Assembly: GCF_052173895.1 (NCBI RefSeq)
Contig: NZ_JBQMXS010000004.1
Location: 3,960 to 67,959, forward strand
Direction: 5' to 3'
DNA from: Catonella sp.
GTDB taxonomy: Bacteria; Bacillota; Clostridia; Lachnospirales; Lachnospiraceae
DNA: 64,000 bases
Part shown: positions 1 to 28,520 of the stretch, one piece after another
Layout: every line of letters starts with the position of its first letter
How positions within the stretch are numbered: position 1 is the first letter of the stretch
Position numbers and translations under genes: made by a program
Notes under the pieces: model-generated
Told to the model about the DNA's origin: nothing
The model's database searches: none
What the model saw: only the letters and a program-made list of their open reading frames with translations

Positions 1-1
1 T

Positions 2-1393
2 TTTGATTTAAAGAAAGAAAGTTCTGAAGGTTCATTGTTTGTATGGAGCAGAGATAATGATGTAAAGAACAATTACTATTATTATGAAAAATTATTGAAG
101 GACTGCGACTACTTTAAAAATGTTAAGTTTAGCGAGTGGATTAAAAGTCGTCAGAGATGGAAAGTACTGACGGATGAGGAAATCAATAATCTTGAAGCAA
201 GTTTAAAAATACAGTATTATTTTAAAAAGGATATACCTAAAGAACCTAAAAAATATATTTGGAAGTATGCAACATTACCATTAATTAAGGAGAATGATAA
301 ATATCCTGCTATCATTGTTAATGCACCATTTGCAACTGATATTTCAAGAAATAATACGGAGGGTAGTGCCAAAAATAAAGAATATACTGAAGCTTTAGAT
401 TCAATTATAAAATCTCAGTTTGCTAATGCTGTAATGGAGGCATCCAACAAAGAGCAAAAGTATTTTAAGGAAAAAGAGGGAGGGATACTGTTTTATTTAA
501 TAGGACTTGATGAATATTTAGATGAGATAAAAGATAAGGAAATTTTCTCTTGTTATTGTAAGGATAATGAGAATCAGATAGTGGAGCTAAAAAAAGCGTT
601 AATGGATATAACCGTAATCAATGATCATTTAATATACTCACTCCTAGAAAATCTGGAAAAAGACAAATTTATAACAGCAATAAATAAAATATGTAGTTAT
701 GATAATAATGTAGATAAAAAACAAATCAGGGATAGTTTTATTTTATCTATTATGAAAGATAAAGCAGTTTTGAAGAAAACGGATATGGTTAATTATGATG
801 AAATTGATGAAATAGAAAACAAGATTAAGATTTATAACAAAGAAAATCAAAAGCTAAATACTTATAACCAAGAAAATCAAGAGCTAAATACTCAAAATTT
901 GATTGAGTCTTTTATTAAAGAGCTGAAATTACCTGATGAATGGATCGAGGTAGGTGATGAAAATGAGTTTATGAAGTTTCTTAAAAGTATTTGGAAAAAA
1001 ATCTATAAAGAATGGGGGGATTTTGACAGAACCTGCCCTATCTATCCTTTTATTGATAAAAATGATAATGGTGGGAAGGTTACAAAATTCGCTGAATTAA
1101 AAAAAGATTTTTGGTATTTTGACATAGAAATGAAACATTATTCTACTGATTACTATAAGATAATTGATTTGGACTGGCTATCTAAAAGGCAAAATGAATC
1201 AACTGATAGAAATGACGCATTAAAGGTTTTTGATACAACAAGAGATGAGGAAATAAAGAAGTATTCAAAAGAAGTCGAAAAGAAACATCTCGAGGAGCTT
1301 TTAGAGAAAGAACAAAAATATACTGATGAATTTTGGAAGATTCTAAAAAAAATTTATGACTTGAAGCAGGGAGGGGAATACGATTGGAAATAA
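2..1393 (+). CDS. 5'-truncated large protein, probable C-terminal part of a sacsin/HATPase-like (NOV-like) protein
   Basis: The frame is open from base 2 (ttt gat tta aag...), so the start lies outside the window. The segment 'YATLPL...IIVNAPFATDISR' resembles the xNAPFxTDxSR motif that follows the GHKL domain in bacterial sacsin-like proteins. Confidence 0.45.
   Translation, partial: FDLKKESSEGSLFVWSRDNDVKNNYYYYEKLLKDCDYFKNVKFSEWIKSRQRWKVLTDEEINNLEASLKIQYYFKKDIPKEPKKYIWKYATLPLIKENDKYPAIIVNAPFATDISRNNTEGSAKNKEYTEALDSIIKSQFANAVMEASNKEQKYFKEKEGGILFYLIGLDEYLDEIKDKEIFSCYCKDNENQIVELKKALMDITVINDHLIYSLLENLEKDKFITAINKICSYDNNVDKKQIRDSFILSIMKDKAVLKKTDMVNYDEIDEIENKIKIYNKENQKLNTYNQENQELNTQNLIESFIKELKLPDEWIEVGDENEFMKFLKSIWKKIYKEWGDFDRTCPIYPFIDKNDNGGKVTKFAELKKDFWYFDIEMKHYSTDYYKIIDLDWLSKRQNESTDRNDALKVFDTTRDEEIKKYSKEVEKKHLEELLEKEQKYTDEFWKILKKIYDLKQGGEYDWK
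832..891 (+). repeat. 30-bp in-frame tandem duplication (YNKENQKLNT / YNQENQELNT)
   Basis: ttataacaaagaaaatcaaaagctaaatac is followed by ttataaccaagaaaatcaagagctaaatac (2 mismatches). Confidence 0.9.
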
Positions 1394-3060
1394 ATAATAA
1401 TAGCTATAATTTGGTCAACTCATTGAAAGAGAAATTATTTTTAGAACCTAATTTTTTTGGAGCCGAAATCGAACTTGAAGAGAAATTAATATCAACAGGC
1501 ATTGTTGAACTTGAAGGTAAACCTTCATCTTTTGTGGAAGTCGAAGATGACGATTTTTATTCATTTATTATGGGACGTGGAATTCCTACGAATTTTGTTG
1601 GTATTGAAGATAAAGACTTTAATATAAGAACTAAAGAACTTTTGGACAGGTTAAACGAGCTAGATGACGAAGAAGAACAAAAGCTATTTGCTCGATTGAT
1701 TGAATATTTAATATATGACAAATACTGGTTGATACTTAATAGTGATGATGATAGAACAAATTTTTTAAATGTAATTAAAGAACACAAAAATGAGATTCCT
1801 ATTAAGAATATGGGGGGAGAATACACTAAAAATAATGATGATTCTGTGATTCTATTTGATGAAAAAAATGAAGATAGAGGTGAGTTTAAAAAGTTTTTCA
1901 TCGAACAAAAAGAAGATAAACATTATAATGAATATGTAGAGGCATTAGGAGTGAAGTCTCCTAAAGAATTTGTTCATAGTATTAAGTGGTTTGAGAAAAT
2001 TAATATTAATTTCGTGAAATATTTGTACCGGCGATATAAAGGGGAAGTGGATGAGAATGAATTGTTATCATATTTGAAGATAAAACTTGACTCAAAACTT
2101 GACTCAGAAGAGCGGAAATATGTTTTAGATTTTATTTTTGATTATGCTCTTTTAGAGAAGAAGCATGAATGGGAAGTTTATCTTCTTCTTAGACCTGACG
2201 AACTTATTAATTATGGAGAGAAGATAAACGATTTATATAGAGATAATGACCACAACAAAAATTGTATTGAGTTAGTTGGTTATATTGATAAAAATGGATA
2301 CAATGATATTATTTCAGAAATTATTAATGAAATTTTAGAGGAGTTAAAATTTGCTGATAATGAAAAAGTTGAAAGAATAAAGCATGACTTAAAAATAGAA
2401 AATATGGTTCTTTGTGTTTCAGAATCAAAACAGAAACCTGTTGGGTATACTGTATTGGCAGATGATAAAATATACTTATGGCATCAGTCAAACCACAGAA
2501 AATATAGAGAATGTATAATTAAGTATATTGTGGACAAATATGAAATTAAACTTGATACACGTTCATATTCTATGTCTGCAATCGATATGGATTCTTCTAT
2601 AGAAGTAGCAGATGTAGACCAAAATGATCTTGATGAATTATTAGCTCACGAAATTGAATGGAATAAAGAGGAAATTGATGTAAAAAAACGAATATTGATG
2701 GAACCATATTATTTCAAGAAGAAATTTTATCCGGGGTATGCAAAAACCTGCCCACTATGTAATAAGTTGGTTGTGACTGAAATTACATCGATGAGAATTA
2801 AGTCTATTTATATAAAAGAAGAAGAAACAAAATACAAGTATGATTTTATTTGTTGTAATACCTGTGCAGATTTATTTTATTATTGTGAAAATCAACCGGT
2901 TATAAAGGGATTAGATGAGATTGGGAATTTTAATTCGGAGATTCAGCTGGAGTTTTATTTTGAACCACATTATCGGTACACTCCTTATGAAATCAGCTTT
3001 AAACCAAGACCAGTTCATAGAAATGTTTTATTACGACAGAAGAAAGGGAGTAAAACTTAA
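1384..3060 (+). CDS. Hypothetical acidic protein with C-terminal CxxC...CxxC Zn finger (HNH-like arrangement)
   Basis: 558-aa ORF with a TTG start after a GGAGGGG SD. The C-terminus reads 'YPGYAKTCPLC...ICCNTCADLFYY'. Confidence 0.6.
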   Translation: MEINNNSYNLVNSLKEKLFLEPNFFGAEIELEEKLISTGIVELEGKPSSFVEVEDDDFYSFIMGRGIPTNFVGIEDKDFNIRTKELLDRLNELDDEEEQKLFARLIEYLIYDKYWLILNSDDDRTNFLNVIKEHKNEIPIKNMGGEYTKNNDDSVILFDEKNEDRGEFKKFFIEQKEDKHYNEYVEALGVKSPKEFVHSIKWFEKININFVKYLYRRYKGEVDENELLSYLKIKLDSKLDSEERKYVLDFIFDYALLEKKHEWEVYLLLRPDELINYGEKINDLYRDNDHNKNCIELVGYIDKNGYNDIISEIINEILEELKFADNEKVERIKHDLKIENMVLCVSESKQKPVGYTVLADDKIYLWHQSNHRKYRECIIKYIVDKYEIKLDTRSYSMSAIDMDSSIEVADVDQNDLDELLAHEIEWNKEEIDVKKRILMEPYYFKKKFYPGYAKTCPLCNKLVVTEITSMRIKSIYIKEEETKYKYDFICCNTCADLFYYCENQPVIKGLDEIGNFNSEIQLEFYFEPHYRYTPYEISFKPRPVHRNVLLRQKKGSKT

Positions 3061-5204
3061 TGAGAAGAGAAAAAGAGAAAATTCCATATGCCTTGTATAA
3101 TTGTCCATTGAGATTTAATCCTTTCCAGTACGAGCCTTTTTGGTTATGGAATAAACAAGATGATAAAAAAAGGATGTATATAGCTGATGAAGTTGGACTT
3201 GGTAAAACGATTGAAGTAGGAATAATCATTAAAGAAGAATTGATGAGAAAAGAAAATTGTGGGAAGTTTTTAATTGTGGCACCACGCTTTTTGTGTGAGC
3301 AATGGAAAGAACAATTATACGAACTATTCAATATAAAAAGTATTATATATCCTTCTAAGAAGAAAAATGAGGATATGTATGATGTTATTGTATTACCAAT
3401 ATCGCGTTTGAAGGATTTTAAAGACAATAAAGAGGAAATGTTGAAATGTGTTAGTACAATAATAGTGGATGAAGCTCATTATTTTAGAAATTGTTCAGAT
3501 ACTGCAAGATATGAGAATCTCAGAAAAATTATTAACCAAATCAGCAATAGGGTATTTATGTCTGCAACACCTATAAATAATTATTCGACTGATTGGGAAA
3601 ATCAAATAAAATTGTTGAGTCCAAACTCAAATAGTGAAGATTTTAACAATTTGACACATAGTAAAAAATCGGAAGCTTTTCCGTATTGTAAAATAAGAGA
3701 AATAAATACAATCTATTGTTCTTTGACTTACGAAGAGAAGGAATTTTATAATACTACTGATATGATTTCAGATACAGAGTTTGCAAAGACTATATTTAGG
3801 CATATAGGCGCCAGTAGTTTATATGCATTAGACTGTTGCTACAAAAATAATGGTTTTGATGAATTAGAGTGGGGAATGATAAAAGAATCATTTTCAGAAG
3901 ATTTGAATTGTGACCTGAAAGAGATTGGAGAAATAGAGACGGATAAAAAAACACCGGATAAAGATAGTAAAGCGGAAAAACTTTATGATATCCTTAATAA
4001 AAAAATGCTAAACGAAGAGACCAACAATAAAACAGTAATTTTTGCTCATTATCTTGCTACCTGTGAATATTTGGTTGAATATCTGGCGGGAAAAGATGAA
4101 TTTTATATTGACTCAAATAGGTCTTCTTGTAATGAAAAGATTAGAATATTTTCAATTAAAGGAAAGATGAGTCAAATAGAGCAACAAAGGATAGCAAAGC
4201 AGTTTAAGGAATATCCTGGGAAGGCTATCTTAATTTGTAGTGATGTTTGTAAGGAGGGTGTTAATCTCCAATGTGCCAACATATTAATTAATTATGATTT
4301 GCCGTTCAATCCGGCAATTATGGAACAAAGAATTGGTCGTGTGGATAGAGTAGGGCAATCTAAGGATATATATATTTATAATTTTGTAGTAGAGGACACA
4401 TATGATATTACAGTATACTATCAATTTATTCTAGGCAAGTTGGATACTATACATTATTTTTCTGAAAAATTAGGGTTGAATGAACTTAAAATTACTAGTG
4501 AAGATAGTAAAGATGATGAAGATAAAATTATTGGAGACTCTATAAATAAAGCATATGAATTTGCAAAAAATTACAAGCGCAATGTAAACGATGGAGATAT
4601 AGATTCAGAAAATAAAAAACTTAGTGAGTTAAAGGAATATCTAACTAATTACTTACTATCTGCAAAAAGTCTAAAACTTCAAGGGGTAGAAGAAAAACAA
4701 AGATATCTTTGTGAAAAGAAAAATCTGGAAGATAAAGAAATAATTGACAATATAGAATGGTGGATAACTGAAGTAATTAAAATTAAAAAAATTATGAAGA
4801 CAGAGGAAAATATTGATTCATTTAACGATAAGCTTGCTTGGTTTAATGAAACATATGGAGAGCCGGATAACAGAGATTATGAAATTACTATTAGTAAAGA
4901 TCAGATAATACAACTATTTCAGATAGGTGAAAATAGAAGATGGCTTAAGGGATTCTTAAATTTAGATGAGAAAAATGGTGGATTTGACGTATATAAATAT
5001 CTTGAAAATACTCAGGATATTGACGGGGCAAAAGAAAAACTTGTGGTAAAAGAAAGTCCGGTGACAATATCTTATGACTATCTTGATCCTGAAATAAATA
5101 AAACAGGAATGTGTGATAAAGATTGGGATGAGTATTTAGAGCAGTTTGTGCCATATGAGATAAAGGATTTAATAGAAAACCGGCAAATAAATAGTAACTG
5201 CTAA
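3060..5204 (+). CDS. SNF2-family (RapA/DrmD-like) helicase/ATPase
   Basis: Motifs IADEVGLGKT (I), IVAP..LCEQW (Ia), IIVDEAH (II), MSATP (III), EGVNLQ (V) and NYDLPFNP..EQRIGRVDRVGQ (VI). TAATG overlap with the upstream gene. Confidence 0.9.
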   Translation: MRREKEKIPYALYNCPLRFNPFQYEPFWLWNKQDDKKRMYIADEVGLGKTIEVGIIIKEELMRKENCGKFLIVAPRFLCEQWKEQLYELFNIKSIIYPSKKKNEDMYDVIVLPISRLKDFKDNKEEMLKCVSTIIVDEAHYFRNCSDTARYENLRKIINQISNRVFMSATPINNYSTDWENQIKLLSPNSNSEDFNNLTHSKKSEAFPYCKIREINTIYCSLTYEEKEFYNTTDMISDTEFAKTIFRHIGASSLYALDCCYKNNGFDELEWGMIKESFSEDLNCDLKEIGEIETDKKTPDKDSKAEKLYDILNKKMLNEETNNKTVIFAHYLATCEYLVEYLAGKDEFYIDSNRSSCNEKIRIFSIKGKMSQIEQQRIAKQFKEYPGKAILICSDVCKEGVNLQCANILINYDLPFNPAIMEQRIGRVDRVGQSKDIYIYNFVVEDTYDITVYYQFILGKLDTIHYFSEKLGLNELKITSEDSKDDEDKIIGDSINKAYEFAKNYKRNVNDGDIDSENKKLSELKEYLTNYLLSAKSLKLQGVEEKQRYLCEKKNLEDKEIIDNIEWWITEVIKIKKIMKTEENIDSFNDKLAWFNETYGEPDNRDYEITISKDQIIQLFQIGENRRWLKGFLNLDEKNGGFDVYKYLENTQDIDGAKEKLVVKESPVTISYDYLDPEINKTGMCDKDWDEYLEQFVPYEIKDLIENRQINSNC

Positions 5205-5281
5205 GGCATTGTGATAGAGGATTATGACACCTATATCATAAATTATATAAAAGATAAAATAAATTTAGGAGGTATGAGATT

Positions 5282-5572
5282 ATGTCAGAATATATGATAA
5301 CAAAATCATCAATCATCAACCGCTGTAACAAAGACGGTAAACTTCATCTCCTTTTTACTGAAAGAGAGCGACCTTGTAGTGAAGCGTATTTAAAAGAGTT
5401 ATATGACAACGATGGCAATAAATGTAGCAGATATTTTATTGATATTTCATCTATAGAAGAAGCTGATGAACTTGGTGATAAATATGATGTGGATGTTCTT
5501 ATTACAAGAAATCTTGACTTTGATGGGATTATATCCTTAGTATTATATGATGAGGAGATAAAGCAGAATTAG
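5282..5572 (+). CDS. Hypothetical protein (96 aa)
   Basis: Strong AGGAGG SD upstream. No recognised motif. Confidence 0.65.
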   Translation: MSEYMITKSSIINRCNKDGKLHLLFTERERPCSEAYLKELYDNDGNKCSRYFIDISSIEEADELGDKYDVDVLITRNLDFDGIISLVLYDEEIKQN

Positions 5573-5588
5573 GAATAGAGGTTCAACT

Positions 5589-6284
5589 ATGATAAAAAAA
5601 AGACCGAAATGTATTTTATTTGATTTTGATAGGACAATGGTTTTTCTTTATAGTGATCGGAATTTATTGTCCGAATTAGGAAGGCTGATGACAGAATTCT
5701 ATTGTGAGTATATTCCTCTAGAGTATGATTCTGTTAAAGATGGATATTTTGTTTGGCATGAAGCGCATAGAGAGGTTGAAAAAAAATATGATTCTGTTAA
5801 GGCATTGGAAATTAATAGAAAAGCAGAACAAATAGTAACAAGTTTCGAAATGAAATTGGTAAAAGAAAAGCAATTATTTGCAGATGTTGTTGATACGATA
5901 AAAAAAATGTATGATGAAGGTGTATGTCTAGGCATTGTTTCAAGTAATAGCACCAGTATTATAGAGGCAAAACTTCAATGCGAAGGAATTATAGATTGTT
6001 TTAAGGTGATATATGGAAGAGAGATTCCGTTTGATCCTGATAAATTAAAACCAAGTTCGTATCCACTTATTTCGGCAATAAATGAACTTGGATTCGACAA
6101 AACGGAAGTTTGGTATGTTGGGGATGATATTATTGATATTGATGCTGCAAGAAGAGCTGGAATATCAGTGGTTGGAATGGCAACAGGTAATTATACTATG
6201 GAAGAATTATGCGAAAGAGGGGCTGACATAACAGCTGATTCAATGAAATCACTATATAAATATTTTGAAATACTGGAGATATAA
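5589..6284 (+). CDS. HAD-family hydrolase (phosphoglycolate phosphatase-like)
   Basis: HAD motifs ILFDFDRT (I), IVSSN (II), KP (III) and YVGDDIIDIDAARRAG (IV). Confidence 0.9.
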   Translation: MIKKRPKCILFDFDRTMVFLYSDRNLLSELGRLMTEFYCEYIPLEYDSVKDGYFVWHEAHREVEKKYDSVKALEINRKAEQIVTSFEMKLVKEKQLFADVVDTIKKMYDEGVCLGIVSSNSTSIIEAKLQCEGIIDCFKVIYGREIPFDPDKLKPSSYPLISAINELGFDKTEVWYVGDDIIDIDAARRAGISVVGMATGNYTMEELCERGADITADSMKSLYKYFEILEI

Positions 6285-6290
6285 TATAAA

Positions 6291-6887
6291 ATGAATATTT
6301 ATTTAATTAGACATGCACAGACTACAATGAATGCAAAGGGGAAAGTCTTTTCAGGAATATCAGATGTTTCTTTATCAACTAATGGGATAGAATGTACGCA
6401 AAAAATTGCAAATAGTGGATTGTGGGATGAAATAGAACATATATATATATCTCCATTAATTCGCACCAGACAAACAGCAGATATTTTATTTGGGACAAAT
6501 AATACATATACAGTAGTTAATGAATTTGCTGAGATGGATTTTGGAGATTACGAAGGAAAAAGCATGCCTATTGATTATGTGTCAGACCCTATTTTCTTCA
6601 AATGGGTCAATGATCCCGAAAATTTGTCATTTCCTAATGGAGGAAATTTGAAAGTTCATGCAATGAACGCTTATAAAGCTTTGAAAAATATTGCTGAGAA
6701 TAAAGAATATACTAATGTGGCGATTGTATCTCATGCTACGACAATACGGTTGATTTTATCAATAATATTAACTGATAGTATTTTAAATTTTAGGAAAATT
6801 CCTTGTGATAATATTGGTGTTTCACTTATTACAGTGGATCAAGGATGTGCAAAGGTAAAATATATTAATGCACCTATTGGTATTTAG
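6291..6887 (+). CDS. Histidine phosphatase family protein (GpmB/CobC-like)
   Basis: IYLIRHAQT, SPLIRTRQTA, EMDFGDYEG and IVSHA motifs. Confidence 0.9.
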   Translation: MNIYLIRHAQTTMNAKGKVFSGISDVSLSTNGIECTQKIANSGLWDEIEHIYISPLIRTRQTADILFGTNNTYTVVNEFAEMDFGDYEGKSMPIDYVSDPIFFKWVNDPENLSFPNGGNLKVHAMNAYKALKNIAENKEYTNVAIVSHATTIRLILSIILTDSILNFRKIPCDNIGVSLITVDQGCAKVKYINAPIGI

Positions 6888-6905
6888 AGGAGGATATAAT
6901 ATTTT

Positions 6906-9506
6906 ATGGGAAAGAAAACAATTAGAAAGGATATTTTATCGATTGAGGAAGAACCCTTTTTTGACAGAGATGAGGCAAGAAAAGAATTTTGGAGATGTTA
7001 TGACGAAGTTAAAGAAACTGGTAACTTTCAAGTAATTATGTACTATGGGCTTGGTGGAATGGGGAAAAGTTCTCTTTTGCATCAACTTGAAAAGGAAGTT
7101 AAAGAAAGGGATAAAAAGTCTGTATATGTATATTATGATTTTAATGATGGTCAAGATTCAGTAGTTGTATTGAGGAGAATTGCAAAAGATTTACAAGATA
7201 ATTATAACATGAAATTTCCTATATTTTTATATGCAGTATATGCTTATATGGTTAAATGTGGTATAAATTCAGAACAAAATGAGATAAAAAGTGTGTTGGA
7301 CGACATCCCTGTTTTGAGAGAGGCATTTGAAGTTATGAATTTTTTGCCAGGTATCAGTACTTTTTCGCAACCTATTGAATGGCTGGTGGATAAAGTGTGT
7401 GGTACTGTTCAAAAGGTAAAAAAGTTTAAAGCTAAGGAAATGATTGAAATAATTAATAATGCTTCGAAGGAAAAACTGCATGATATCATATCAGGATTAT
7501 TTATTACTGAAATGAATGAGAATTTAAATGAATTAGGGAATCCTATCTTTGTATTAGTTTTGGATACATACGAGAGATTAGTTAATGAACTATCTGCAAT
7601 AGGGACACCATTAGAAAATGATTTGTGGCTTCGTGATGATAATGACGGTATTTTATTACATATAGAGAACCTAGTTTGCGTATTAGCAGGACGTGAAGAA
7701 TTAAAATGGAGAAATATAGATTCGGACTGGGATGATGAAGTTTTGTCGCAGATTGAGATTGATACACTTGATGAATATTACTCAGTTCAACTTCTGGAAA
7801 GACATAATATAAAAGAAGATAATATACAAAGAAAAATATTGGAGGTTACAAACGGTATGCCTCTATATTTGGATATTTGTGTCGATACTTATAAAAGTGT
7901 AAAGTCAAGAGAAGATAGTATAACTATTGATTTATTTGATAATAAAATTGAGAAAATGGCAAAGAGATTGCTTACATATATGTCAGATGAAGAAAAAGAT
8001 GTGTTGTATTTATTATCTTGTCTAGGACGTTGGGATGACGATGAGTTTTTTAAAATAAATGATATATTATACAGAGATGCAGTTAATACAAGGATATATC
8101 AAAAGATATTAGAATTAACATTTGTACGTCAAGATCCTGATGGCTATTATATTCATCAAACAATGCAAGAAATAATGATTCAATATTGTGAATTGAAAAA
8201 AATCTATAAGTTTGTGCAAGCTATCTATAATTGTGCAGATTTAGTTACAACAGAAGGATACAAGTATATTTATTTAGTTTCAAAAATATGTGCCATAAGA
8301 AAAGATAAAGAGTTGATAACCTGGTGGATGAATAATATTATTCCTGTACTGGAGTTATATATAGATACATTTTATTTAAGCCAATTTATAACAATATATG
8401 AGTTGTTATTTGAGATTATAGATGATTATAGTTTGAATTCGTTATATTTGAATTATTTGTTAAAAAAAGGAGATTATGTTAATTCTAATACTTACATTGA
8501 AAAAAATAAGAGAATTTTAGAGAAAAATGATAATTTGAATTCATTACAATTTATGCTAACTGCATCATATTATTATTACATAAAAGGAAGAGATTCTGAG
8601 GCTATGGAGTTGAGACAATATGTTTATGATAAAAGAATGGAAACTTTGGGAGCTAGTCATCGAGATACTGTAAGGACAGGATTAGCATTAGCAGCATCTC
8701 TTTCTAGAGTTGGAAAATATAGTGAATCTATTGTATTGGGTAATAGTTGTAGAGAACTATTAAAAGATAGTAATGGTGGGTATGATTCGATCATTTCAGT
8801 TGCAAAGAATCAGCTGGGTGACTCCTATTTTCGTTTAGGTAAATTTGATGATGCATTAACTGTATATGAAGAAGTTTATAGGAATAGAAAAGAATGGCTA
8901 GGAAAAAAGAATAATTCTACTATGATAGCATATAATCACATTGCAGATTGTTATGTATGCATTGGTAAACATGATGAAGCACTCAGGATATATAATGAGG
9001 TATTGAGTGTTCGTATTTCTGAGCTTAATATTGAGGAAGCCTATGAGTATTTTGTAGATGGAACTGCTTATATGTCACATGACCATGCTGATACTGTAAT
9101 TGTATATAATAATATGGCAGTATGCCTTATGTATTTAAATAAATGGAATGAAGCAAAAACAATTTTAAAAGAAGTTGTAGCCAAAAGAAGAGCTTTACTT
9201 GCTGACACTGCTCCTGCAACCTTGGGAGCTATGGAAAATTTAGCAATTTGTGAGTATTACTTAGGTGAATATGATAATGCTATTTTTCATATTCGATATG
9301 TAGTAGACTCCTTGAAAAATAGCATATCGGAAGACCATTATGACATGATTATAGCTAGGTATCATATGAGTTTGATAGAAAGTAATAATAAATGGGATTT
9401 TGAAAAAGAATTCGGAGAACATCTTTCATTTAATGTATTTTATAGTAAACTGATTAAAGAAGGCAGTTTTATCGGATACTTTAGTTTAGGGAGATATTAT
9501 GAGTAA
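6906..9506 (+). CDS. STAND-like P-loop NTPase with C-terminal TPR repeats
   Basis: FFDR, Walker A YGLGGMGKS, Walker B VLVLDTYE, sensor AGRE and GxP motif TNGMPLYL. The C-terminal kinesin-light-chain-like TPRs include 'LGASHRDT', 'HADTVIVYNNMA' and 'APATLGAMENLA'. Confidence 0.8.
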   Translation: MGKKTIRKDILSIEEEPFFDRDEARKEFWRCYDEVKETGNFQVIMYYGLGGMGKSSLLHQLEKEVKERDKKSVYVYYDFNDGQDSVVVLRRIAKDLQDNYNMKFPIFLYAVYAYMVKCGINSEQNEIKSVLDDIPVLREAFEVMNFLPGISTFSQPIEWLVDKVCGTVQKVKKFKAKEMIEIINNASKEKLHDIISGLFITEMNENLNELGNPIFVLVLDTYERLVNELSAIGTPLENDLWLRDDNDGILLHIENLVCVLAGREELKWRNIDSDWDDEVLSQIEIDTLDEYYSVQLLERHNIKEDNIQRKILEVTNGMPLYLDICVDTYKSVKSREDSITIDLFDNKIEKMAKRLLTYMSDEEKDVLYLLSCLGRWDDDEFFKINDILYRDAVNTRIYQKILELTFVRQDPDGYYIHQTMQEIMIQYCELKKIYKFVQAIYNCADLVTTEGYKYIYLVSKICAIRKDKELITWWMNNIIPVLELYIDTFYLSQFITIYELLFEIIDDYSLNSLYLNYLLKKGDYVNSNTYIEKNKRILEKNDNLNSLQFMLTASYYYYIKGRDSEAMELRQYVYDKRMETLGASHRDTVRTGLALAASLSRVGKYSESIVLGNSCRELLKDSNGGYDSIISVAKNQLGDSYFRLGKFDDALTVYEEVYRNRKEWLGKKNNSTMIAYNHIADCYVCIGKHDEALRIYNEVLSVRISELNIEEAYEYFVDGTAYMSHDHADTVIVYNNMAVCLMYLNKWNEAKTILKEVVAKRRALLADTAPATLGAMENLAICEYYLGEYDNAIFHIRYVVDSLKNSISEDHYDMIIARYHMSLIESNNKWDFEKEFGEHLSFNVFYSKLIKEGSFIGYFSLGRYYE

Positions 9507-10431
9507 AATTATAACGCTTACGCTCAATAGTGCAATAGAGGAAGTTGCTTTTATAGATGATAGAGAGGGAAAAGAAAAAATTCTAGATATGAAAAAATAT
9601 TATACAGGGAAAGCTGTAAATACTGGTTTAGCCCTCTCTAATGTAGGATGTAAATGTGAGATGGTCATAGTTTGTGGAGAAAATACATGTGAAGCATTTT
9701 CTGCTTTTTCTAATGTGACTAGATTGGTTTCAGTGTTTCCTGTTTTGGGGGACACAAGAATTAATAGAACTAATGTTTATATAGGTGATCGAGAAGAAAA
9801 AATCATTAATAAAGGCTATTGCATGAGTGATAATATTGCTCATAAAGTTTTTCAGTATGTTATTGAACATGCTGAAAAAGATGATTTAATAATGATTGCT
9901 GGTAGTTTACCTGAAGGGGTAACTGATTGTTGGTATTGTGAATTAATAGTTGCATTGAAGAAAATGGGAGCTAAAGTCCTTTTTGATGCAGCTGGTAGCA
10001 CACTTGTGGCAGGAGTGAAGAATTCGCCATTTTATATTAAACCAAATGAAGAGGAAATAAGAGCGTTGATTGGGAACTACAAACAAGAGAATCTGACTGA
10101 GTGTATTAAAAATATTTCCAAGAAGAATAATATAGAAAATGTTATAGTGTCATTAGGTAAAAAAGGAGTTATGGGGTATAATTCTAAGTGTAATGAATTG
10201 TATCAGGTATTTTCTGAGCAAGAGTTTGGTTCAAATACCATGACGACAGGCTGCGGAGATTCATTCAATGCAGGTTTCATATATGGAACTGTATTAACAA
10301 AATCTTTTTTGCAATCGCTCATCTATGGAGTTGCTTTTGCCAGTGCCAATCTTATTGCTGGATTTCCTGAAAAAATAAGTATGGATATTGTCGAAGAGTG
10401 TGTTCAACATATAAAATATCAAATGATGTGA
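9499..10431 (+). CDS. PfkB-family sugar kinase (1-phosphofructokinase/tagatose-6-P kinase-like)
   Basis: IITLTLNSA, GKAVN, TRIN, AGSLPEG, IKPNEEE, VSLGKKG and the anion-hole motif TTGCGDSFNAG. Overlaps the upstream stop by 8 nt. Confidence 0.9.
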   Translation: MSKIITLTLNSAIEEVAFIDDREGKEKILDMKKYYTGKAVNTGLALSNVGCKCEMVIVCGENTCEAFSAFSNVTRLVSVFPVLGDTRINRTNVYIGDREEKIINKGYCMSDNIAHKVFQYVIEHAEKDDLIMIAGSLPEGVTDCWYCELIVALKKMGAKVLFDAAGSTLVAGVKNSPFYIKPNEEEIRALIGNYKQENLTECIKNISKKNNIENVIVSLGKKGVMGYNSKCNELYQVFSEQEFGSNTMTTGCGDSFNAGFIYGTVLTKSFLQSLIYGVAFASANLIAGFPEKISMDIVEECVQHIKYQMM

Positions 10432-10542
10432 TATCAGTCAACTCAACTGACAGAAATAAGAAGATGTAGTTGGTAGCAGGATGCTTAGCATACTAGGAGA
10501 AAATGAAACAGTCCCGCTATTTGTGGAATATATAATTAACTC

Positions 10543-10580
10543 AATCTGAAGAAAGCAACTTTCTTCAGATTTTTTATTTT
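10543..10580 (+). terminator. Rho-independent terminator (copy 1 of duplicated cassette)
   Basis: AATCTGAAGAAAG-caa-CTTTCTTCAGATT forms a 13-bp stem, followed by TTTTATTTT. Confidence 0.85.
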
Positions 10581-10588
10581 CCCTCTCT

Positions 10589-10628
10589 ATCTGTCAAAAT
10601 TGACAGATGTTTTTCTTGAAACTATGTT
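10589..10628 (+). promoter_or_regulatory. Palindromic operator ATCTGTCAA-AA-TTGACAGAT overlapping a sigma-A promoter (TTGACA-17-TATGTT), copy 1
   Basis: Palindrome at 10589-10608, -35 at 10600-10605, -10 at 10623-10628. Confidence 0.75.
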
Positions 10629-10678
10629 AAACTAATTAAAATGAGAACGATGAATGAGCAGATAAGAGAGGTAAAAAT

Positions 10679-11533
10679 ATGGAAAAAGCAACGGTAAATA
10701 TGAAAAACTGGAAACTTAGAACTAGAGGCGAAGATTATAACTTATCAGGGACTGCAGACAGCCATCCGAGGCTTGGCAATAATACATATATAGGCTGCAC
10801 TTCATACTTAGTTAGCTATACATTAGAAGACGATATTTTAACTTATGAAACAAGAAATACTATTTATATCTGCCCATTAAAATATATGGTAGAAGCAGAT
10901 GAAGGCTCTAAAGCCAGCATCTTAAAAGAGTACTATGAGAGTCCCGAGCTTACAGAACACCTTAATGAGCTTATGCTGATTGGCCAGAGAGAAAGAGAAG
11001 AAGAAAAGAAAAAGTACGAAGAGCATCTGCTAGAAGTCGCAAAAGGGTATGAGGACTGTATTTATATTGAAATGAAAAGAATTACAAATGGAGATATGCT
11101 TGCTTATAATATAGGAGGCAAGGCAGGACTTGTTGAGCCACATAAGCATATTAGTGACAGGCAGGATAGTATTTTGTATATGAGATATCAGGAAGATGAT
11201 GAGGAAGCAAGCCTTGATTTTAGGTATTGGCCTATGGAAGATCCGGATGATATACCAGTGTTTGTGATGAACGATGAAGGTGAATTTGTTGAATTACCAA
11301 GAGAGCGTAAAGTGAAAGAAAAGCAAGAAGTTGTCACATATAGCTGGTCAGATAATATAAAAAGAGCAGTTATAAAAAATGACTCCCACATTCTTATAGA
11401 ATTTAATGGCGTAGATATAGCTATTGGTGAGACAAAGGTATTTGGGGCAGACCGTCATGTAGAGGGATTACTTAGTCCGGACTGCTATAATGGGAAATCC
11501 TGCTTAACTCCGGGAGAAAAGAGAAATGATTGA
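10679..11533 (+). CDS. Hypothetical protein (284 aa)
   Basis: GAGAGG SD, directly downstream of cassette promoter 1. No recognised domain. Confidence 0.7.
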   Translation: MEKATVNMKNWKLRTRGEDYNLSGTADSHPRLGNNTYIGCTSYLVSYTLEDDILTYETRNTIYICPLKYMVEADEGSKASILKEYYESPELTEHLNELMLIGQREREEEKKKYEEHLLEVAKGYEDCIYIEMKRITNGDMLAYNIGGKAGLVEPHKHISDRQDSILYMRYQEDDEEASLDFRYWPMEDPDDIPVFVMNDEGEFVELPRERKVKEKQEVVTYSWSDNIKRAVIKNDSHILIEFNGVDIAIGETKVFGADRHVEGLLSPDCYNGKSCLTPGEKRND

Positions 11534-11558
11534 TTAAGAGAAATGAATTATGTATAAT
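11530..11558 (+). promoter_or_regulatory. Putative sigma-A promoter (TTGATT-17-TATAAT) for the AAA/PD-(D/E)XK gene
   Basis: Near-consensus hexamers with 17-bp spacing. Confidence 0.5.
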
Positions 11559-11615
11559 ATATGTATAACGAAAGAATTTACATATATTTTCATTTAAGGC
11601 TCAAAGGAGAACTAA

Positions 11616-13295
11616 ATGGCGGACATCAATCTTCCGGTCGGCAACTCAAACTTTGCTGACATTATAGAGAATAATTACTACTATGTGGACAAAACCGGGC
11701 TTATAGAGGAGATCCTGCGTGATAGAGGAGTCCAGGTAACTTTGATTACCAGACCTAGGCGCTTTGGGAAGACTCTTGCAATGACTATGCTTGCTGAATT
11801 TTTTGATATTACCAAAAGCAGCAAGTCTGTTTTTGATGGGCTTAATATCGCTAAAAACAGTGAGCTTATGGAAAAATGGCTGAATAAGTGGCCGGTGGTA
11901 TATATTTCATTTAAAGATGTGGTAGGGATTGATTTTACAAAAAGTTATGGGATGCTAAAAAATACAATATCAGATTTATTTATAAAAAACTATTATCTCA
12001 AAGATAGCAGCAAAGTAAATGAAATAGATAAAAAAGTGTTTTTAGAAATAGCTGATAAAGTAGAGGGCAGGCCTACAGATGATCAGATTAAAACAAGTCT
12101 TGCACTGCTTATGAGGATGCTAAAAGCTCATTATGACAGGCCTGTAATTTTGCTTATAGATGAGTATGATGTTCCGCTTGCAAAGGCAAGCGAGGATAAG
12201 GAACACTATGAAAAAATGCTCGATATTGTAAAACCTATGCTTAGTTCTGCTATTAAGGACAATCAGGCATTGAAGCTGGGAGTGGTTACAGGCTGTCTTA
12301 GGATAGCTAAGGAAAGCATATTTACAGGAACCAATAATTTCGTTTCAGATACAATATCAGATATAAGGCTGAATGAGTATTTTGGGTTTACTCAAAATGA
12401 GGTTGACAAAATTTTAACAGAGTCAAAATTAGAATTTGCCGCTGGAGATATAAAAAAATGGTATGATGGATATCATTTTGGAGAAACCGATGTATATTGT
12501 CCTTGGAATGTTATGAATTATGTAAATAGCTTACAGAACAACCCTAAAGCGAAACCGGTAGGATATTGGAAAAACTCGAGTGACAATATGATAATTCGTT
12601 CATTCATTGATAGTGCAAAAGGAGCAATTACAGGGAAAATAGAGACTCTGCTTTCTGGAGGCAATATTATAGAGAATATCAATGAAGATTTGACATATCA
12701 GAATTTACACGAATCTGAAGACAATCTATGGAGCATACTATATCTTACAGGTTACTTGACTTTGGAAAAAAAAGAAGAGAGTTTTTGTGTATCTGAAAAT
12801 GGTTTTAGCTTAAAAATACCTAATTTAGAGGTGAAAACTATATTCGAAGATACGATAAAAAAATGGTTTGAAGACAGTGCTAAGTCGTGGGATAGAAATA
12901 AGCTTTTTCATGCAGTCTGGAATGGCGATGACAGAGTGATTACCGATGAAATGACAAAGCTGCTTAGGAAGACTATCAGTTATCATGATTACAAAGAAGA
13001 TTTTTATCATGCATTTTTGGCTGGAATATTTGCAGGAGCTGGATATGCAGTAGAGTCAAATAGGGAGCATGGAGAAGGCAGGAGTGATATTTTAATCAAA
13101 GATTTTGAAGAGAGTAAAGCTGTAATTTTTGAAGTAAAATGTTCAAAGCAGGTAAAAGACCTTGAGAGAGACTGTCAAAAGGCAAAAGAACAGATAGAAG
13201 ATAAAAATTATGGAACAGAAATGGATGATGAAGGCATTGATGTAAAAGCATATGGAATATCATTTTGGAAAAAAAGATGTATGGTAATTATATAG
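11616..13295 (+). CDS. AAA-ATPase-like protein with C-terminal PD-(D/E)XK nuclease (DUF1703-type)
   Basis: LPVG..F..I....YYVDKT, RPRRFGKT, LLIDEYD and WYDGY in the ATPase part. The C-terminus has SNREHGEGRSDILI...IFEVK. Confidence 0.9.
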   Translation: MADINLPVGNSNFADIIENNYYYVDKTGLIEEILRDRGVQVTLITRPRRFGKTLAMTMLAEFFDITKSSKSVFDGLNIAKNSELMEKWLNKWPVVYISFKDVVGIDFTKSYGMLKNTISDLFIKNYYLKDSSKVNEIDKKVFLEIADKVEGRPTDDQIKTSLALLMRMLKAHYDRPVILLIDEYDVPLAKASEDKEHYEKMLDIVKPMLSSAIKDNQALKLGVVTGCLRIAKESIFTGTNNFVSDTISDIRLNEYFGFTQNEVDKILTESKLEFAAGDIKKWYDGYHFGETDVYCPWNVMNYVNSLQNNPKAKPVGYWKNSSDNMIIRSFIDSAKGAITGKIETLLSGGNIIENINEDLTYQNLHESEDNLWSILYLTGYLTLEKKEESFCVSENGFSLKIPNLEVKTIFEDTIKKWFEDSAKSWDRNKLFHAVWNGDDRVITDEMTKLLRKTISYHDYKEDFYHAFLAGIFAGAGYAVESNREHGEGRSDILIKDFEESKAVIFEVKCSKQVKDLERDCQKAKEQIEDKNYGTEMDDEGIDVKAYGISFWKKRCMVII

Positions 13296-13302
13296 CAAAC
13301 TT

Positions 13303-13342
13303 AATCTGAAGAGAGACAAAACTTTCTTCAGATTTTTTATTT
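13303..13342 (+). terminator. Rho-independent terminator (copy 2)
   Basis: AATCTGAAGA...TCTTCAGATT stem followed by TTTTATTT, starting 7 nt after the stop at 13295. Confidence 0.8.
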
Positions 13343-13350
13343 CTACCCAA

Positions 13351-13390
13351 ATCTGTCAAATTTGACAGATGATTTCTTCTAAGCTATGTT
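13351..13390 (+). promoter_or_regulatory. Perfect 20-bp palindrome ATCTGTCAAATTTGACAGAT overlapping a sigma-A promoter (TTGACA-17-TATGTT), copy 2
   Basis: Palindrome at 13351-13370, -35 at 13362-13367, -10 at 13385-13390. Confidence 0.75.
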
Positions 13391-13425
13391 AAACTTATTA
13401 TGAGTAAATGATAAAAGGAGTAGCC

Positions 13426-15180
13426 ATGTCTTATTGTAAGAAGTTTTTGCCCTATAGCAGGGACAATGTACCCTTTGTGATATTAAAAGAGCGAATAGAA
13501 AATGTATCAGGAAATGAATGTCTTATAAAGAGAGCCTGCCTTGCACTGTCAGCAGGAGGGATACTGAAAAGACCGCCTTATGAAGAAGACCTGTTTAATA
13601 CATATGGTATAAGCTGCGATTATATTGATGAAGAGAGTATAGCTGAGATTTACGAAAATTGTCCTTTGATAGACAGAAACATCATCATAGTCACTGAGCA
13701 AGAGGAAGTAGGAGTAAAGGCAGGGGTACTTTTAGCAAATTATGTAAAAATACTGCAGAAAGTATATGTAGATGCAGAGCTTGAAGAAAATGGTTATGAC
13801 ATTTATGATGATGAAGATGAGGGAGAAGTCGAGGGTATACTTCATTATGACAACTTTGATGAAGGGTTTAGTGTGTTTAATTTTACTTCAAATAAAGGGC
13901 TGGTAGAAATTTGTGATGTGATAGACCTTTCATTTGTACCGGAAGATGTAAAGGGAGAGTATCATTATGGCGACAGATTTACAAAAAGCCTGACGCCTTT
14001 TGTAATTGTGACAGGGCTAAAGCCTGATAGATATCTTGAAGCAAGGCTCTCAGGCATAGCTACAAGCAGGAATGCGCTAAGAATAATGGTTATTAATCAT
14101 GATACATATTTTAAGCACGAAATGCAAGTTTACCTTATGGATAAGGACTGCACTACTGTTGTAGTGGATGCTGTAGAAGATTCATACTACGAAGGCGTAT
14201 TAAAAAGGCTTTTGGCATTGCAGGAGCTTAAAATAAAAGAAGAAAATATAAGCAGGTTCATATTTAGGACAAAGCGTATATTTGGAAAAAACTTTTCAGA
14301 AGAAATGCTTGTTAAAATTGTAACAGATGCTAAAAAATCTAAAGATAAAGCAAGAGATAAAGGCAATGGAGAGACAGATGAAAAATATTTTGGAAGATTT
14401 TTTGAAAAGGAAGACAGTGCGAGAGAAAAACTTAGCAAAATGAATGGCCTTACTGAATTCAAGGCTTTAGTTAAAGAATACTTGGCTGTCTTAAAAGCAG
14501 AGAGAGAAAATAAGAATCTTAAAACTATGCATAGAAACTTGATATTTACAGGAAGGCCGGGTACAGGCAAAACTACTTGTGCAAAGCTCCTTGCAGACAT
14601 TTTATCTGAAGAAGGTATGACCAATGCTACATTTAATATGGTGAGCAGAGCTGACATCATAGGAAAGTATATAGGCCAGACTGCGCCTAAGATTACAGAG
14701 CTTTTCAATAATTCAAGGAATGGCATTATTTTTGTGGATGAGGCCGGATTTTTTGCAAATGATGCAGAAAGTGCCAATAGCTTTGTAAAAGAGGCAATTA
14801 AAGAGTTTGTAAGGTATATGGAACTTTATCCTGATGTGATAGTTATCTTTGCTTTATATGATAATGAACTGCAAGACTTTTTGAGATTGGATAAGGGGCT
14901 TGAATCAAGGATAAGGAAGACTATATATTTTAAGGATTATAGTGTACCTGAGCTGGTGAGGATTTTTGAAGAAAAGCTTGATGAAAATGGATATAGTATG
15001 GCGAAAAATTTGGGAGAAAAGCTTGAAGAAATTTTTGAAAATGAAATAAAGTCAGAGAATTTTGCTAATGCAAGGACTGTAAGAAAGCTTGTAGAGGAAG
15101 CAATTACAAAGTTTGGCATAAGGACTTTTAGGGAAGAAAACCCTGAAAGAGTGATAATTTTAGAAGATATATCAAGATAG
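13426..15180 (+). CDS. CbbX/SpoVK-like AAA+ ATPase with an uncharacterised N-terminal region
   Basis: GLTEFK, NLIFTGRPGTGKTT.A, RADIIGKYIGQTAPK, GIIFVDEA, GLESRI, F.DYS..EL and NFANARTVRKLVE. Start moved to the ATG after the AAGGAG SD. Confidence 0.85.
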   Translation: MSYCKKFLPYSRDNVPFVILKERIENVSGNECLIKRACLALSAGGILKRPPYEEDLFNTYGISCDYIDEESIAEIYENCPLIDRNIIIVTEQEEVGVKAGVLLANYVKILQKVYVDAELEENGYDIYDDEDEGEVEGILHYDNFDEGFSVFNFTSNKGLVEICDVIDLSFVPEDVKGEYHYGDRFTKSLTPFVIVTGLKPDRYLEARLSGIATSRNALRIMVINHDTYFKHEMQVYLMDKDCTTVVVDAVEDSYYEGVLKRLLALQELKIKEENISRFIFRTKRIFGKNFSEEMLVKIVTDAKKSKDKARDKGNGETDEKYFGRFFEKEDSAREKLSKMNGLTEFKALVKEYLAVLKAERENKNLKTMHRNLIFTGRPGTGKTTCAKLLADILSEEGMTNATFNMVSRADIIGKYIGQTAPKITELFNNSRNGIIFVDEAGFFANDAESANSFVKEAIKEFVRYMELYPDVIVIFALYDNELQDFLRLDKGLESRIRKTIYFKDYSVPELVRIFEEKLDENGYSMAKNLGEKLEEIFENEIKSENFANARTVRKLVEEAITKFGIRTFREENPERVIILEDISR

Positions 15181-15191
15181 GCATAAGGAGT

Positions 15192-15719
15192 GTGAGCATG
15201 ATTTATTTTACATCAGATTTACATTTTTACCATAAAAATGTCATTAAGCATGCAAACAGGCCTTTTCAAAATGTGGAAGAGATGAATGAAAAGCTTATTA
15301 AAAACTGGAATAACCGGATAAAATCAGAGGATGAAGTTTATATTTTAGGAGACTTCACTATGAAAGGCACTGAGTATGCTGCAGAGATTTTAAGGAAACT
15401 TAAAGGAAAGAAATATCTGATTAAAGGAAATCATGATAACTTTGTAAATCAGGAAACTTTTGATAATTCGCTTTTTGAATGGGTAAAAGATTATTTCGAA
15501 CTGCAACATAATAACCAGAGCTTTATCATGTTTCATTATCCTATAGAAGAGTGGAATCATTTTTTTAGGGGAGCAATCCACTTACATGGACATCAGCACA
15601 ACAGCCCGGAATACAATATATTAAATGAAGAAAAGGGGCTTAAAAAGTATGATGTAGGAGTGGATGCCAATTATATGAAACCTGTGAGCATAGAGGAGAT
15701 AATAAAGTTTTTTGGCTAG
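15192..15719 (+). CDS. Calcineurin-like metallophosphoesterase (short, phage/COG4186-like)
   Basis: FTSDLHFYH, YILGDF, KGNHD, FHYP, HLHGHQH and DVGVDA motifs. Confidence 0.9.
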   Translation: MSMIYFTSDLHFYHKNVIKHANRPFQNVEEMNEKLIKNWNNRIKSEDEVYILGDFTMKGTEYAAEILRKLKGKKYLIKGNHDNFVNQETFDNSLFEWVKDYFELQHNNQSFIMFHYPIEEWNHFFRGAIHLHGHQHNSPEYNILNEEKGLKKYDVGVDANYMKPVSIEEIIKFFG

Positions 15720-15733
15720 AGAAGGGAGAAAAA

Positions 15734-17236: not shown

Positions 17237-17257
17237 GCTGCTAGGGAGGGTATCAGT

Positions 17258-20316: not shown

Positions 20317-20400
20317 AGGCCAGACCTCCAAAGAATAATATATAAGAACAGTTTAATGAGAATTTTGCAAAAATGCAAGCTATAATTAAAGGAGAAAACT

Positions 20401-27801: not shown

Positions 27802-28428
27802 ATGAAGAGATTAGGAGTGCTTACAGTAATATCGGGTTTTTCAGGGGTAGGTAAGGGAACTATTGTAAAAAAACTGGTAGCAGAACAGGGATATGCTTTA
27901 TCTATTTCTGCTACTTCGAGGTCTCCGAGAGAGGGAGAAGTACATGGAAGAGAATATTTCTTTTTGACAAGGGATGAGTTTCATAGTATAATAGAGAGTA
28001 ACGGTTTTATAGAGTGGGCTGAATATGTAAGTAATTTTTATGGTACTCCTAAATCATATGTGGAAGAAAGACTTGCAAAAGGGCAGGATGTAATACTTGA
28101 AATAGAGCCTCAGGGAGCATTGAAAGTGAAAGAACAATACCCTGAAGCAGTGCTTATCTTTGTTGTTCCTCCTACTGCAAAGGAGCTTAAAAATAGGCTT
28201 ATAGGAAGGGGTACTGAAGAAATAGGAGTAATAGCTAAGAGACTTAAAAGGGCAGCAGAAGAGACGGAGTATATTAATAACTATGAATATATAGTAGTAA
28301 ATGATGATTTGAATGATGCTATAAATGATATTCACTGCATTATTCAATCGTCTTCTCACAAGAGAGAAAGAACAGTGGATTTCTTGAATGTTTTGAAAGA
28401 GGATTTAAAAAATAGTTTTAATGAGTAA
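27802..28428 (+). CDS. gmk: Guanylate kinase
   Basis: SGFSGVGKGT, SATSRSPREGEVHGREYFF and YGTP motifs. Confidence 0.97.
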   Translation: MKRLGVLTVISGFSGVGKGTIVKKLVAEQGYALSISATSRSPREGEVHGREYFFLTRDEFHSIIESNGFIEWAEYVSNFYGTPKSYVEERLAKGQDVILEIEPQGALKVKEQYPEAVLIFVVPPTAKELKNRLIGRGTEEIGVIAKRLKRAAEETEYINNYEYIVVNDDLNDAINDIHCIIQSSSHKRERTVDFLNVLKEDLKNSFNE

Positions 28429-28520
28429 TTTTATGATACAAGTGTTAAAAGTATAAAAATTCGATGCAAGCTTGCTTGTAAGAGAATCTATTTTATTTAT
28501 AGAAAGGAAGAATAATAATT

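Follow-up and report, generated by a model that had tools for sequence, protein, structure and literature searches.

A conserved accessory cassette joining an effector-less STAND NTPase-TPR protein to a PfkB-family kinase and a histidine phosphatase in Catonella sp.

STAND activators of the MalT, GutR and LAL type sense through a helical-repeat domain and are encoded beside sugar-metabolising enzymes, so that joint sensing of a metabolite and ATP offers a plausible analogy for STAND proteins found in such company. In the RADAR system, a large ATPase has a distinct small-molecule enzyme as its partner. Those bacterial STAND/NLR-like immune proteins that have been described either include the effector in their own polypeptide chain or recruit a toxin recognisable as such, and a survey of antiviral STAND proteins presents their logic, in its main text, as ligand binding followed by oligomerisation (PMC13581612). 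Published descriptions also name a HAD phosphatase among the components of two validated defence systems, PUA-Cal-HAD and DS-9 (PMC13092281). Here we analyse a 64,000-nucleotide (nt) stretch of the genome of Catonella sp. (contig NZ_JBQMXS010000004.1), referred to as the window. Positions 6291-10431 of the window are one conserved, undescribed accessory cassette, consisting of a histidine phosphatase, an effector-less STAND NTPase-TPR protein and a PfkB kinase. The copy studied here additionally includes a HAD phosphatase gene, and perhaps also a gene for a protein of 96 amino acids (aa).

The four main genes are arranged as follows.

5589-6284, + strand: HAD-IA phosphatase gene (231 aa; Pfam HAD_2, 1.4e-23)
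6291-6887, + strand: histidine phosphatase gene, branch 1, CobC/PspA/PhoE-like (198 aa; Pfam His_Phos_1, 8.4e-36)
6906-9506, + strand: STAND NTPase-TPR gene (866 aa; Pfam TPR_12, 1e-29)
9499-10431, + strand: PfkB-family kinase gene (310 aa; Pfam PfkB, 4.9e-29)

The intergenic gaps are 6, 18 and -8 nt, the last being an 8-nt overlap of the PfkB start with the NTPase stop, and a Shine-Dalgarno-like purine run precedes each of the four starts. A first-pass annotation of the window, made from the letters alone, had proposed four genes with these gaps and domains, an NTPase with no space for an N-terminal effector, and intact catalytic motifs in the three enzymes (DxD, RH..H and GCGD). The open reading frame and Pfam coordinates agree with this layout, the motifs are present and invariant within each subfamily, and the structure of the NTPase bears out the remaining point.

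The 866-aa protein has the marks of the STAND NTPase superfamily (Walker A and B motifs, sensor-1 arginine, GxP motif and winged-helix histidine). The STAND part covers approximately residues 18-445 and comprises a nucleotide-binding, a helical and a winged-helix domain, while residues ~446-866 consist of helical/TPR repeats of the kinesin-light-chain type. Walker A reads GLGGMGKS (residues 48-55). Across 12 aligned sequences, the invariant positions are G48, G50, G51, G53 and K54, the Walker B residues D220..E223, R263, G317-x-P319 (G317-M-P319 in the helical domain of the window protein) and the winged-helix residue H417. The C-terminus likewise has an invariant tail, IGY.SLGRYYE. The Pfam matches of the P-loop STAND type (ATPase_2, NPHP3_N, NB-ARC and AAA_16) fall at residues 18-104 and are all weak and below cut-off. 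Because the NTPase domain begins at about residue 18, there is no room for an N-terminal effector, and the AlphaFold2 model shows nothing ahead of this residue (mean predicted local distance difference test score, pLDDT, 75; good in the TPR part, poor in the nucleotide-binding domain). No helix-turn-helix (HTH) domain was found in Pfam at E<=0.01, and the model contains the STAND winged-helix domain and helical repeats only.

This architecture is kept in the orthologues, which form only 11 full-length clusters among 5.8 billion proteins, all of 867-875 aa and 51-96% identical, plus one truncated form. None of the 11 full-length clusters has a fused effector, a result that holds for these clusters, as no search aimed at longer proteins was made. 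Beyond them identity drops to 25-35%; six of the eight distant relatives scanned match across most of the protein (25-28% identical) and are effector-less too. The NCBIfam matches of the window protein are limited to a PPR repeat and, at TPR level only, FxsT (110.9 bits, cut-off 300), an ESM Atlas search returned generic TPR/NB-ARC clusters only, and PADLOC gave 0 families. A complex prediction for NTPase-TPR residues 300-866 with the PfkB kinase scored 0.01 against a mark of 0.32, yielded no verdict and was used neither for nor against an interaction.

Conservation of the cassette was assessed by means of a shared-contig proxy, namely the size of the longest contig listed for each protein cluster. 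The NTPase-TPR and PfkB clusters have sizes of 4390, 235137, 18872, 4629, 32165, 6038 and 7424 nt in common (7424 from a cluster member), and these matches cover seven of the 12 non-self clusters of the PfkB subfamily. For the NTPase-TPR and the histidine phosphatase, the common sizes are 18872, 3720, 39487, 6038, 4629, 235137 and 32165 nt. All three genes occur on five of these contig sizes, including the 4629-nt contig, which leaves little space beyond the ~4150 nt of the three genes. With lists as short as 12-35 entries, chance is no reasonable explanation for seven exact size coincidences. Among six loci with all three proteins, the NTPases are 50-57%, the kinases 45-51% and the phosphatases 52-64% identical, except for one closer pair (72% in the NTPase), and the 50-57% level therefore indicates at least five old lineages. 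The arrangement goes beyond chance, given that divergent lineages repeatedly combine three of the four genes. Co-occurrence of the four genes, which the first-pass annotation had named as a check, was observed for the NTPase-TPR, PfkB and histidine phosphatase genes, and the linkage of the HAD gene was documented only once more. A distant NTPase-TPR protein (P0019, 27% identical) and a PfkB kinase of the subfamily likewise have a contig size of 4432 nt in common.

The only related locus read, the metagenome locus L011, has the NTPase gene followed by the PfkB gene with the same 8-nt overlap. The NTPase-TPR copy of this locus (L011:433-2812) breaks off at residue 298, continues in frame into 223 aa of unrelated sequence, and has a frameshift near the 3' end. 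At the junction, the guanine-cytosine content (GC) changes from ~0.32 to 0.43-0.48, and the coverage of the contig is 1.4-fold; the copy could be either decayed or an assembly chimera. A solute-binding-protein fragment was considered as an operon partner in L011 and rejected, since it lies beyond the junction with the GC jump on this contig of low coverage.

Overlapping samples of 60 relatives, 400 genomes of the family (one per genus) and 400 genomes of the order contained no NTPase-TPR orthologue, and the only related proteins in those genomes were four distant ones, 24-31% identical. At E<=1e-30, the histidine phosphatase subfamily was represented in 0 of the 400 family genomes. In the GTDB representatives, pattern scanning gave 14 matches for the NTPase and 18 for the PfkB kinase, with 0 confirmed in either case. 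The host genome (G000) holds no paralogue of any of the four genes, and a search of public sequencing runs found none containing 5282-10431, and no RNA run either. The cassette is rare, patchy, horizontally acquired and accessory.

A coincidental association, in which a small enzyme operon happens to be carried along with a STAND sensor that acts alone and has no relation to it, was already disfavoured and is extremely improbable. It could draw on the four distant STAND relatives, which stand alone, the three enzymes being detected by tblastn near none of them (4 of 4 loci), and on the histidine phosphatase subfamily, which is wider than the NTPase family (35 against 11 clusters). It is at odds, however, with a trio maintained in five or more lineages despite divergence to ~50% identity, with the 8-nt NTPase/PfkB overlap kept in L011, and with the size of the PfkB subfamily, whose 13 clusters make it about as small as the NTPase family and mostly share contigs with that family by the size proxy.

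The kinase clears the gathering score of Pfam PF00294 (102.1 bits against 25.8) and belongs to the clade of 1-phosphofructokinase, tagatose-6-phosphate kinase and Pfk-2. Its scores for NCBIfam TIGR03168 (156.5 bits against a cut-off of 216.4) and TIGR03828 (157.1 against 292) are both too low, and it lies below every NCBIfam equivalog cut-off, as the L011 orthologue lies below the cut-off too. The closest PDB relatives are 1-phosphofructokinases (FruK) and Lin2199, identity to the ordinary FruK of the family is 22-27%, and the gene is outside any fru or lac operon. The subfamily has a sharp boundary, with 13 clusters at >=44% identity and the next matches at <=33%, and its 13 sequences have T249-T-G-C-G-D254 and N183-x-x-E186 as invariant motifs. 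In E. coli Pfk-2, Asp14 and Arg90 are described as holding fructose-6-phosphate, Lys27 as touching the phosphoryl groups, and Asp256 of the GXGD motif as the catalytic base (PMC6429617). Judged by motif position in the FruK/Lin2199 alignments, K38, R87 and D254, together with NxxE, would be the counterparts of the phosphosugar-holding and catalytic residues of Pfk-2. Two features are altered yet invariant in the subfamily, namely TGKAVN in place of GGKGxN and Glu14 at the position matching Asp14. The kinase is therefore best described in predictive terms, with a phosphosugar as the probable substrate, a bisphosphate as the probable product, and a sugar that would not be the usual one.

The histidine phosphatase scored 123.9 bits with Pfam His_Phos_1 (threshold 21.7) and retains R7-H8, R58, E81/E88 and H148 as invariant residues. 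With NCBIfam ribazole_cobC (TIGR03162, alpha-ribazole phosphatase CobC), it reached 99.9 bits and stayed below the cut-off of 162.9. Its subfamily has an equally sharp limit: 35 clusters reach >=44% identity, and the following match falls to 34%. The HAD protein is phosphoglycolate-phosphatase-like (Pfam HAD_2, 84.3 bits against 23.8), with invariant D12-x-D14, S118, K154 and D179/D180/D183 and a conserved cap motif, DGYxAWHxLH. It does not qualify as any of the named HAD-IA enzymes, its best NCBIfam match scoring 72.5 bits against a cut-off of 225, and no PDB relative was found at E<=1e-8. Profile and structure comparison assigned no substrate to either phosphatase. In the representative library, which keeps one protein per 50% cluster, 15 HAD relatives were found at E<=1e-30.

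The surroundings of the cassette bear on its function, and the further features are as follows.

2-1393, + strand: C-terminal part of a Tiamat (TmtA)-like gene (whole gene at 406-5352 on the source contig, 1648 aa)
1384-3060, + strand: gene for an unknown protein (558 aa)
3060-5204, + strand: SNF2 helicase gene
5282-5572, + strand: 96-aa open reading frame (function unknown; strong AGGAGG ribosome site; separated by 16 nt from the HAD gene behind it)
10543-10571 and 10588-10609, + strand: two terminator-like hairpins with T-runs (13-bp and 9-bp stems)
10679-11533: u284 gene, encoding a 284-aa unknown protein, behind the hairpins

In positions 1-20000, the window has no DNA counterpart in five same-genus genomes, except for pieces of an AAA-ATPase_like gene at 12153-12527. 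From ~21181 on, it is syntenic with the same-genus genome G005 (87% identical), and the core genes sbcCD, glpK, gmk, priA, def and fmt follow past ~21900. The missing counterparts and the synteny boundary therefore define a strain-specific island of at least 21 kilobases (kb) that reaches the contig end. GC is 0.28-0.33 from the TmtA-like gene through PfkB, 0.35-0.37 in the following genes and 0.36 in the core region, so that the cassette closes the low-GC block of the island.

The 1648-aa protein has no Pfam family and matches PADLOC TmtA (Tiamat) over residues 90-559 (3.6e-48), with further TmtA models matching residues 1027-1497. The Tiamat-like, 558-aa and SNF2 genes have overlapping stops and starts and may form a composite Tiamat-like/SNF2 system; they possibly share an operon with the cassette. 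The first-pass annotation had placed the four genes directly downstream of a defence-like SNF2 module. The position was correct, in that the cassette lies in the strain-specific island behind the SNF2 and TmtA-like genes; the DrmD/BrxH-type models of PADLOC and NCBIfam match the SNF2 gene only partly and below their curated cut-offs. Further defence-type genes lie downstream and encode a WYL regulator and an AAA protein with weak likeness to IetA.

The 96-aa protein has no match in Pfam, NCBIfam, PADLOC or PHROG, and its gene may be the first gene of the cassette. The hairpins at 10543-10609 likely mark the 3' end of the transcription unit. This layout leads to another explanation, which we regard as quite improbable: all eight genes (Tiamat-like, 558-aa, SNF2, 96-aa, HAD, histidine phosphatase, STAND and PfkB) would form one system, in which the upstream nucleic-acid enzymes are the effectors and the STAND protein and the enzymes sense or condition. 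The genes are indeed all co-directional with overlaps or short gaps, no terminator-like site was found in 5204-5282 or anywhere in 5204-10431, the first ones being at 10543, and GC is uniform at 0.28-0.33 across the block. The TmtA-like and SNF2 matches point the same way, Tiamat being described as an antiphage ATPase and DNase. On the other side, the 96-aa gene is preceded by a 77-nt gap after the SNF2 gene that contains a weak promoter-like match, and it has a strong ribosome site of its own. Moreover, the short contigs of the orthologues (4629, 3720 and 4390 nt) carry little beyond the trio, and L011 has the NTPase and PfkB genes without these neighbours downstream.

The u284 gene was considered as a cassette member and rejected, as it sits behind the terminators and is part of a second block that is duplicated on contig C56. 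This four-gene block (SpoVK-like AAA ATPase, u284, a small metallophosphatase and a 500-aa protein) occurs at 10679-17236 of the window and at G000:C56:396-4784, with 77-92% protein identity. In the window copy, u284 comes first and is split from the rest by an AAA-ATPase_like/PDDEXK_9 gene (11616-13295). The latter is the sole part of the island with DNA matches in the same genus, has several copies in the genome G008 and looks like a multi-copy gene family. On the core-genome side, the island is closed at 17258-20331 by a gene for a 611-aa protein with BspA-type leucine-rich repeats and, convergent to it, the gene for the WYL-domain regulator. Outside the island, just after gmk, ~70 nt at ~28416-28498 match more than 20 places in G005 and several in the genome G003 with 80-96% identity, and this stretch looks like a small dispersed repeat.

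We tentatively read the cassette as a STAND-gated phosphosugar kinase/phosphatase conflict module, antiphage and of the abortive type, whose output is enzymatic instead of a fused toxin. A conflict role is suggested because the sensor is effector-less and has no HTH domain, because the cassette is rare, patchy, low in GC and situated in a defence-type island, and because HAD phosphatases have a precedent in defence. In such a module, the TPR arm would bind a trigger, whereupon ATP-dependent oligomerisation of the STAND protein would turn on or scaffold the co-translated kinase. The kinase would then spend ATP on turning a phosphosugar into a bisphosphate, and the two phosphatases would either close an ATP-wasting cycle or hold the product low before and after activation. 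We infer each of the trigger, the physical coupling of sensor and enzyme, the substrate and the effect on phage or host. A more specific version, which is unlikely as it stands, holds that infection causes the STAND oligomer to activate the kinase, which together with the phosphatases either burns ATP in a futile cycle or fills the cell with a sugar bisphosphate that is toxic, and thereby arrests the host, making sugar-phosphate stress an effector of abortive infection.

Several results weigh against a conflict module. The cassette contains no recognisable toxic effector, and its defence context is documented in one genome only. The lack of any meaningful PADLOC match to the four proteins, which the first-pass annotation had named as a check that would support novelty, fits a non-defence function equally well. 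Mobile elements offered no support: of the 65, 102, 86 and 41 pattern matches that the four alignments gave in viral contigs, a single one was confirmed (among the 102; 27% identical and not of the subfamily), none of 84 matched plasmid records covered 80% of the query, and the phage matches were four Wolbachia WO records with a TPR match only. Equal contig size, on which the linkage of the genes is based, is a proxy for a shared contig and not proof of it. Histidine phosphatases of the subfamily also occur on contigs of 21830, 52002, 26803, 46702 and 50869 nt, sizes that appear in neither the NTPase nor the PfkB list. Among 20 HAD representatives, only the closest (P0162, 51% identical) matches a histidine phosphatase of the subfamily (P0131), by a 2523-nt contig, so that HAD co-conservation is documented once outside the window; with one protein kept per 50% cluster in this library, the missing matches are a weak negative.

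The same body of evidence includes results that speak for a metabolic or stress module, a somewhat unlikely alternative in which the kinase and the phosphatases tune one sugar phosphate and the STAND protein is a ligand- and ATP-sensing regulator or scaffold that does not bind DNA. The STAND protein would act much like MalT in the maltose regulon, except that control would be post-translational, and candidate routes are the salvage of ketohexose phosphates or of pentose/deoxypentose phosphates, or the relief of sugar-phosphate stress. By clade, the kinase groups with FruK, LacC and Pfk-2, and it could fill a metabolic gap because G000 has no canonical FruK and no other FruK-type kinase. The second-closest HAD representative, P0163 (537 aa, 28 contigs), combines a PfkB kinase with a HAD domain 45% identical to that of the window in one chain, and its kinase half is 50-67% identical to an ordinary 1-phosphofructokinase that is present, unfused, in 222 of 400 other genomes of the family. 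This fusion with a canonical FruK ties the HAD clade to ordinary fructose-phosphate metabolism. The gene that comes next after PfkB in L011, at a distance of 18 nt, is deoC (deoxyribose-phosphate aldolase; TIGR00126, 206 bits, cut-off 117.3). The invariant fraction is 0.30 in the TPR part and 0.27 in the NTPase part; conservation is thus even across the two parts, with no sign of a diversifying sensor, as would be expected for a constant ligand. The histidine phosphatases on long contigs missing from the other two lists fit a metabolic module as well, and HAD phosphatases that relieve fructose-1-phosphate stress are known, the described example being SppA of Streptococcus mutans, although it is of the HAD-IIB type (10.1101/342170).

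A metabolic module nevertheless meets its own difficulties. Neither the operon in the window nor the island provides a transporter, a transcription regulator or a downstream pathway enzyme to accompany it. By Pfam, no transporter, aldolase or sugar regulator was found in positions 1-20400, in line with what had been noted at first, and this region lacks the transporter, specific regulator and downstream pathway enzyme that characterise a sugar catabolic operon. The sensor has no HTH domain, and we know of no STAND protein that regulates enzymes without a DNA-binding domain. Occurrences of the cassette are extremely sparse and patchy, its island is low in GC and places it next to defence genes, and the sugar-binding motifs of the kinase are altered and invariant (TGKAVN and Glu14). 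The claim of an undescribed system with an effector-less sensor, from which the analysis started, is upheld as to the protein itself, a true STAND NTPase-TPR without effector or DNA-binding domain, and weakened as to a defence function by the HAD relatives, by deoC and by the evenly conserved TPR part.

The neighbouring deoC gene of L011 also raises the processing of nucleotide-derived pentoses, which we consider very unlikely. Here the enzymes would act on (deoxy)ribose phosphates or on an ADP-ribose-like signal, with a messenger that is made or erased and is either read by the STAND protein or linked to NAD/TIR immunity. NCBIfam gives the kinases a weak likeness to ribose-1-phosphate kinase (6.3e-6 for the window kinase, 4.9e-11 for that of L011) and the HAD protein a weak likeness to ribulose-1,5-bisphosphate 5-phosphatase (1.4e-8). 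By a wide margin, however, the best matches of the kinase are hexose-phosphate kinases, and by Pfam the cassette contains no cyclase, TIR or Nudix gene. A possible TIR connection came from P0167 (623 aa), in which a HAD domain of the window's subfamily (40% identical) is joined to a 395-aa N-terminal part. A language model placed this part nearest to TIR-domain clusters (score 0.94, 158 shared features), a lead that was not confirmed: the part had no Pfam match (E<=5), no PADLOC match and no BLAST similarity to a TIR protein, and its single-sequence fold reached a pLDDT of 31.

Literature searches found no description of the four-gene combination. The terms "phosphatase", "sugar kinase" and "in trans" have 0 occurrences in the main text of the STAND survey (PMC13581612), and the main text of comparative-genomics surveys of STAND conflict systems does not mention PfkB, ribokinase, sugar kinase or phosphoglycerate mutase. 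Compared with the antiviral Avs/NLR-like proteins, the conflict module that we tentatively propose has the same STAND NTPase with a C-terminal TPR-like sensor arm, encoded by an accessory gene in a variable island. Described Avs proteins carry a fused N-terminal effector (PMC13581612), for example a nuclease, protease, Sir2 or TIR domain, whereas the window protein has none, matches no Avs model of PADLOC or NCBIfam, and is tightly coupled instead to a kinase and phosphatases. The best Foldseek match, the STAND protein with a TPR domain 6mfv (E 1.6e-9), shares the effector-less NTPase-TPR layout; the similarity is limited to 13% identity and a template modelling (TM) score of ~0.34-0.44, with the nucleotide-binding domain of the window protein poorly modelled. 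To our knowledge, 6mfv has no link to PfkB or phosphatase genes.

The activators of the MalT/GutR/LAL type differ in that they need an HTH or LuxR-type DNA-binding domain, which neither Pfam nor the model indicates in the window protein. The window kinase has the fold and clade of FruK, LacC and Pfk-2 and keeps the GxGD aspartate, NxxE and the phosphosugar lysine and arginine; it differs from them in TGKAVN, Glu14 and its sub-cut-off scores. RADAR, DS-9 and PUA-Cal-HAD have no sequence relationship to the cassette by PADLOC and act on nucleotides, whereas the window kinase resembles a hexose-phosphate kinase. What is new here, in a small cassette of ~5 kb, is an effector-less STAND protein conserved beside, and translationally coupled to, a small-molecule kinase and phosphatases. 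If the cassette serves in defence, killing or arrest would be metabolic, by way of ATP or phosphosugar levels; if it is metabolic, it would be the first case of a STAND protein that controls enzymes without binding DNA. Either outcome widens the known roles of the STAND switch.

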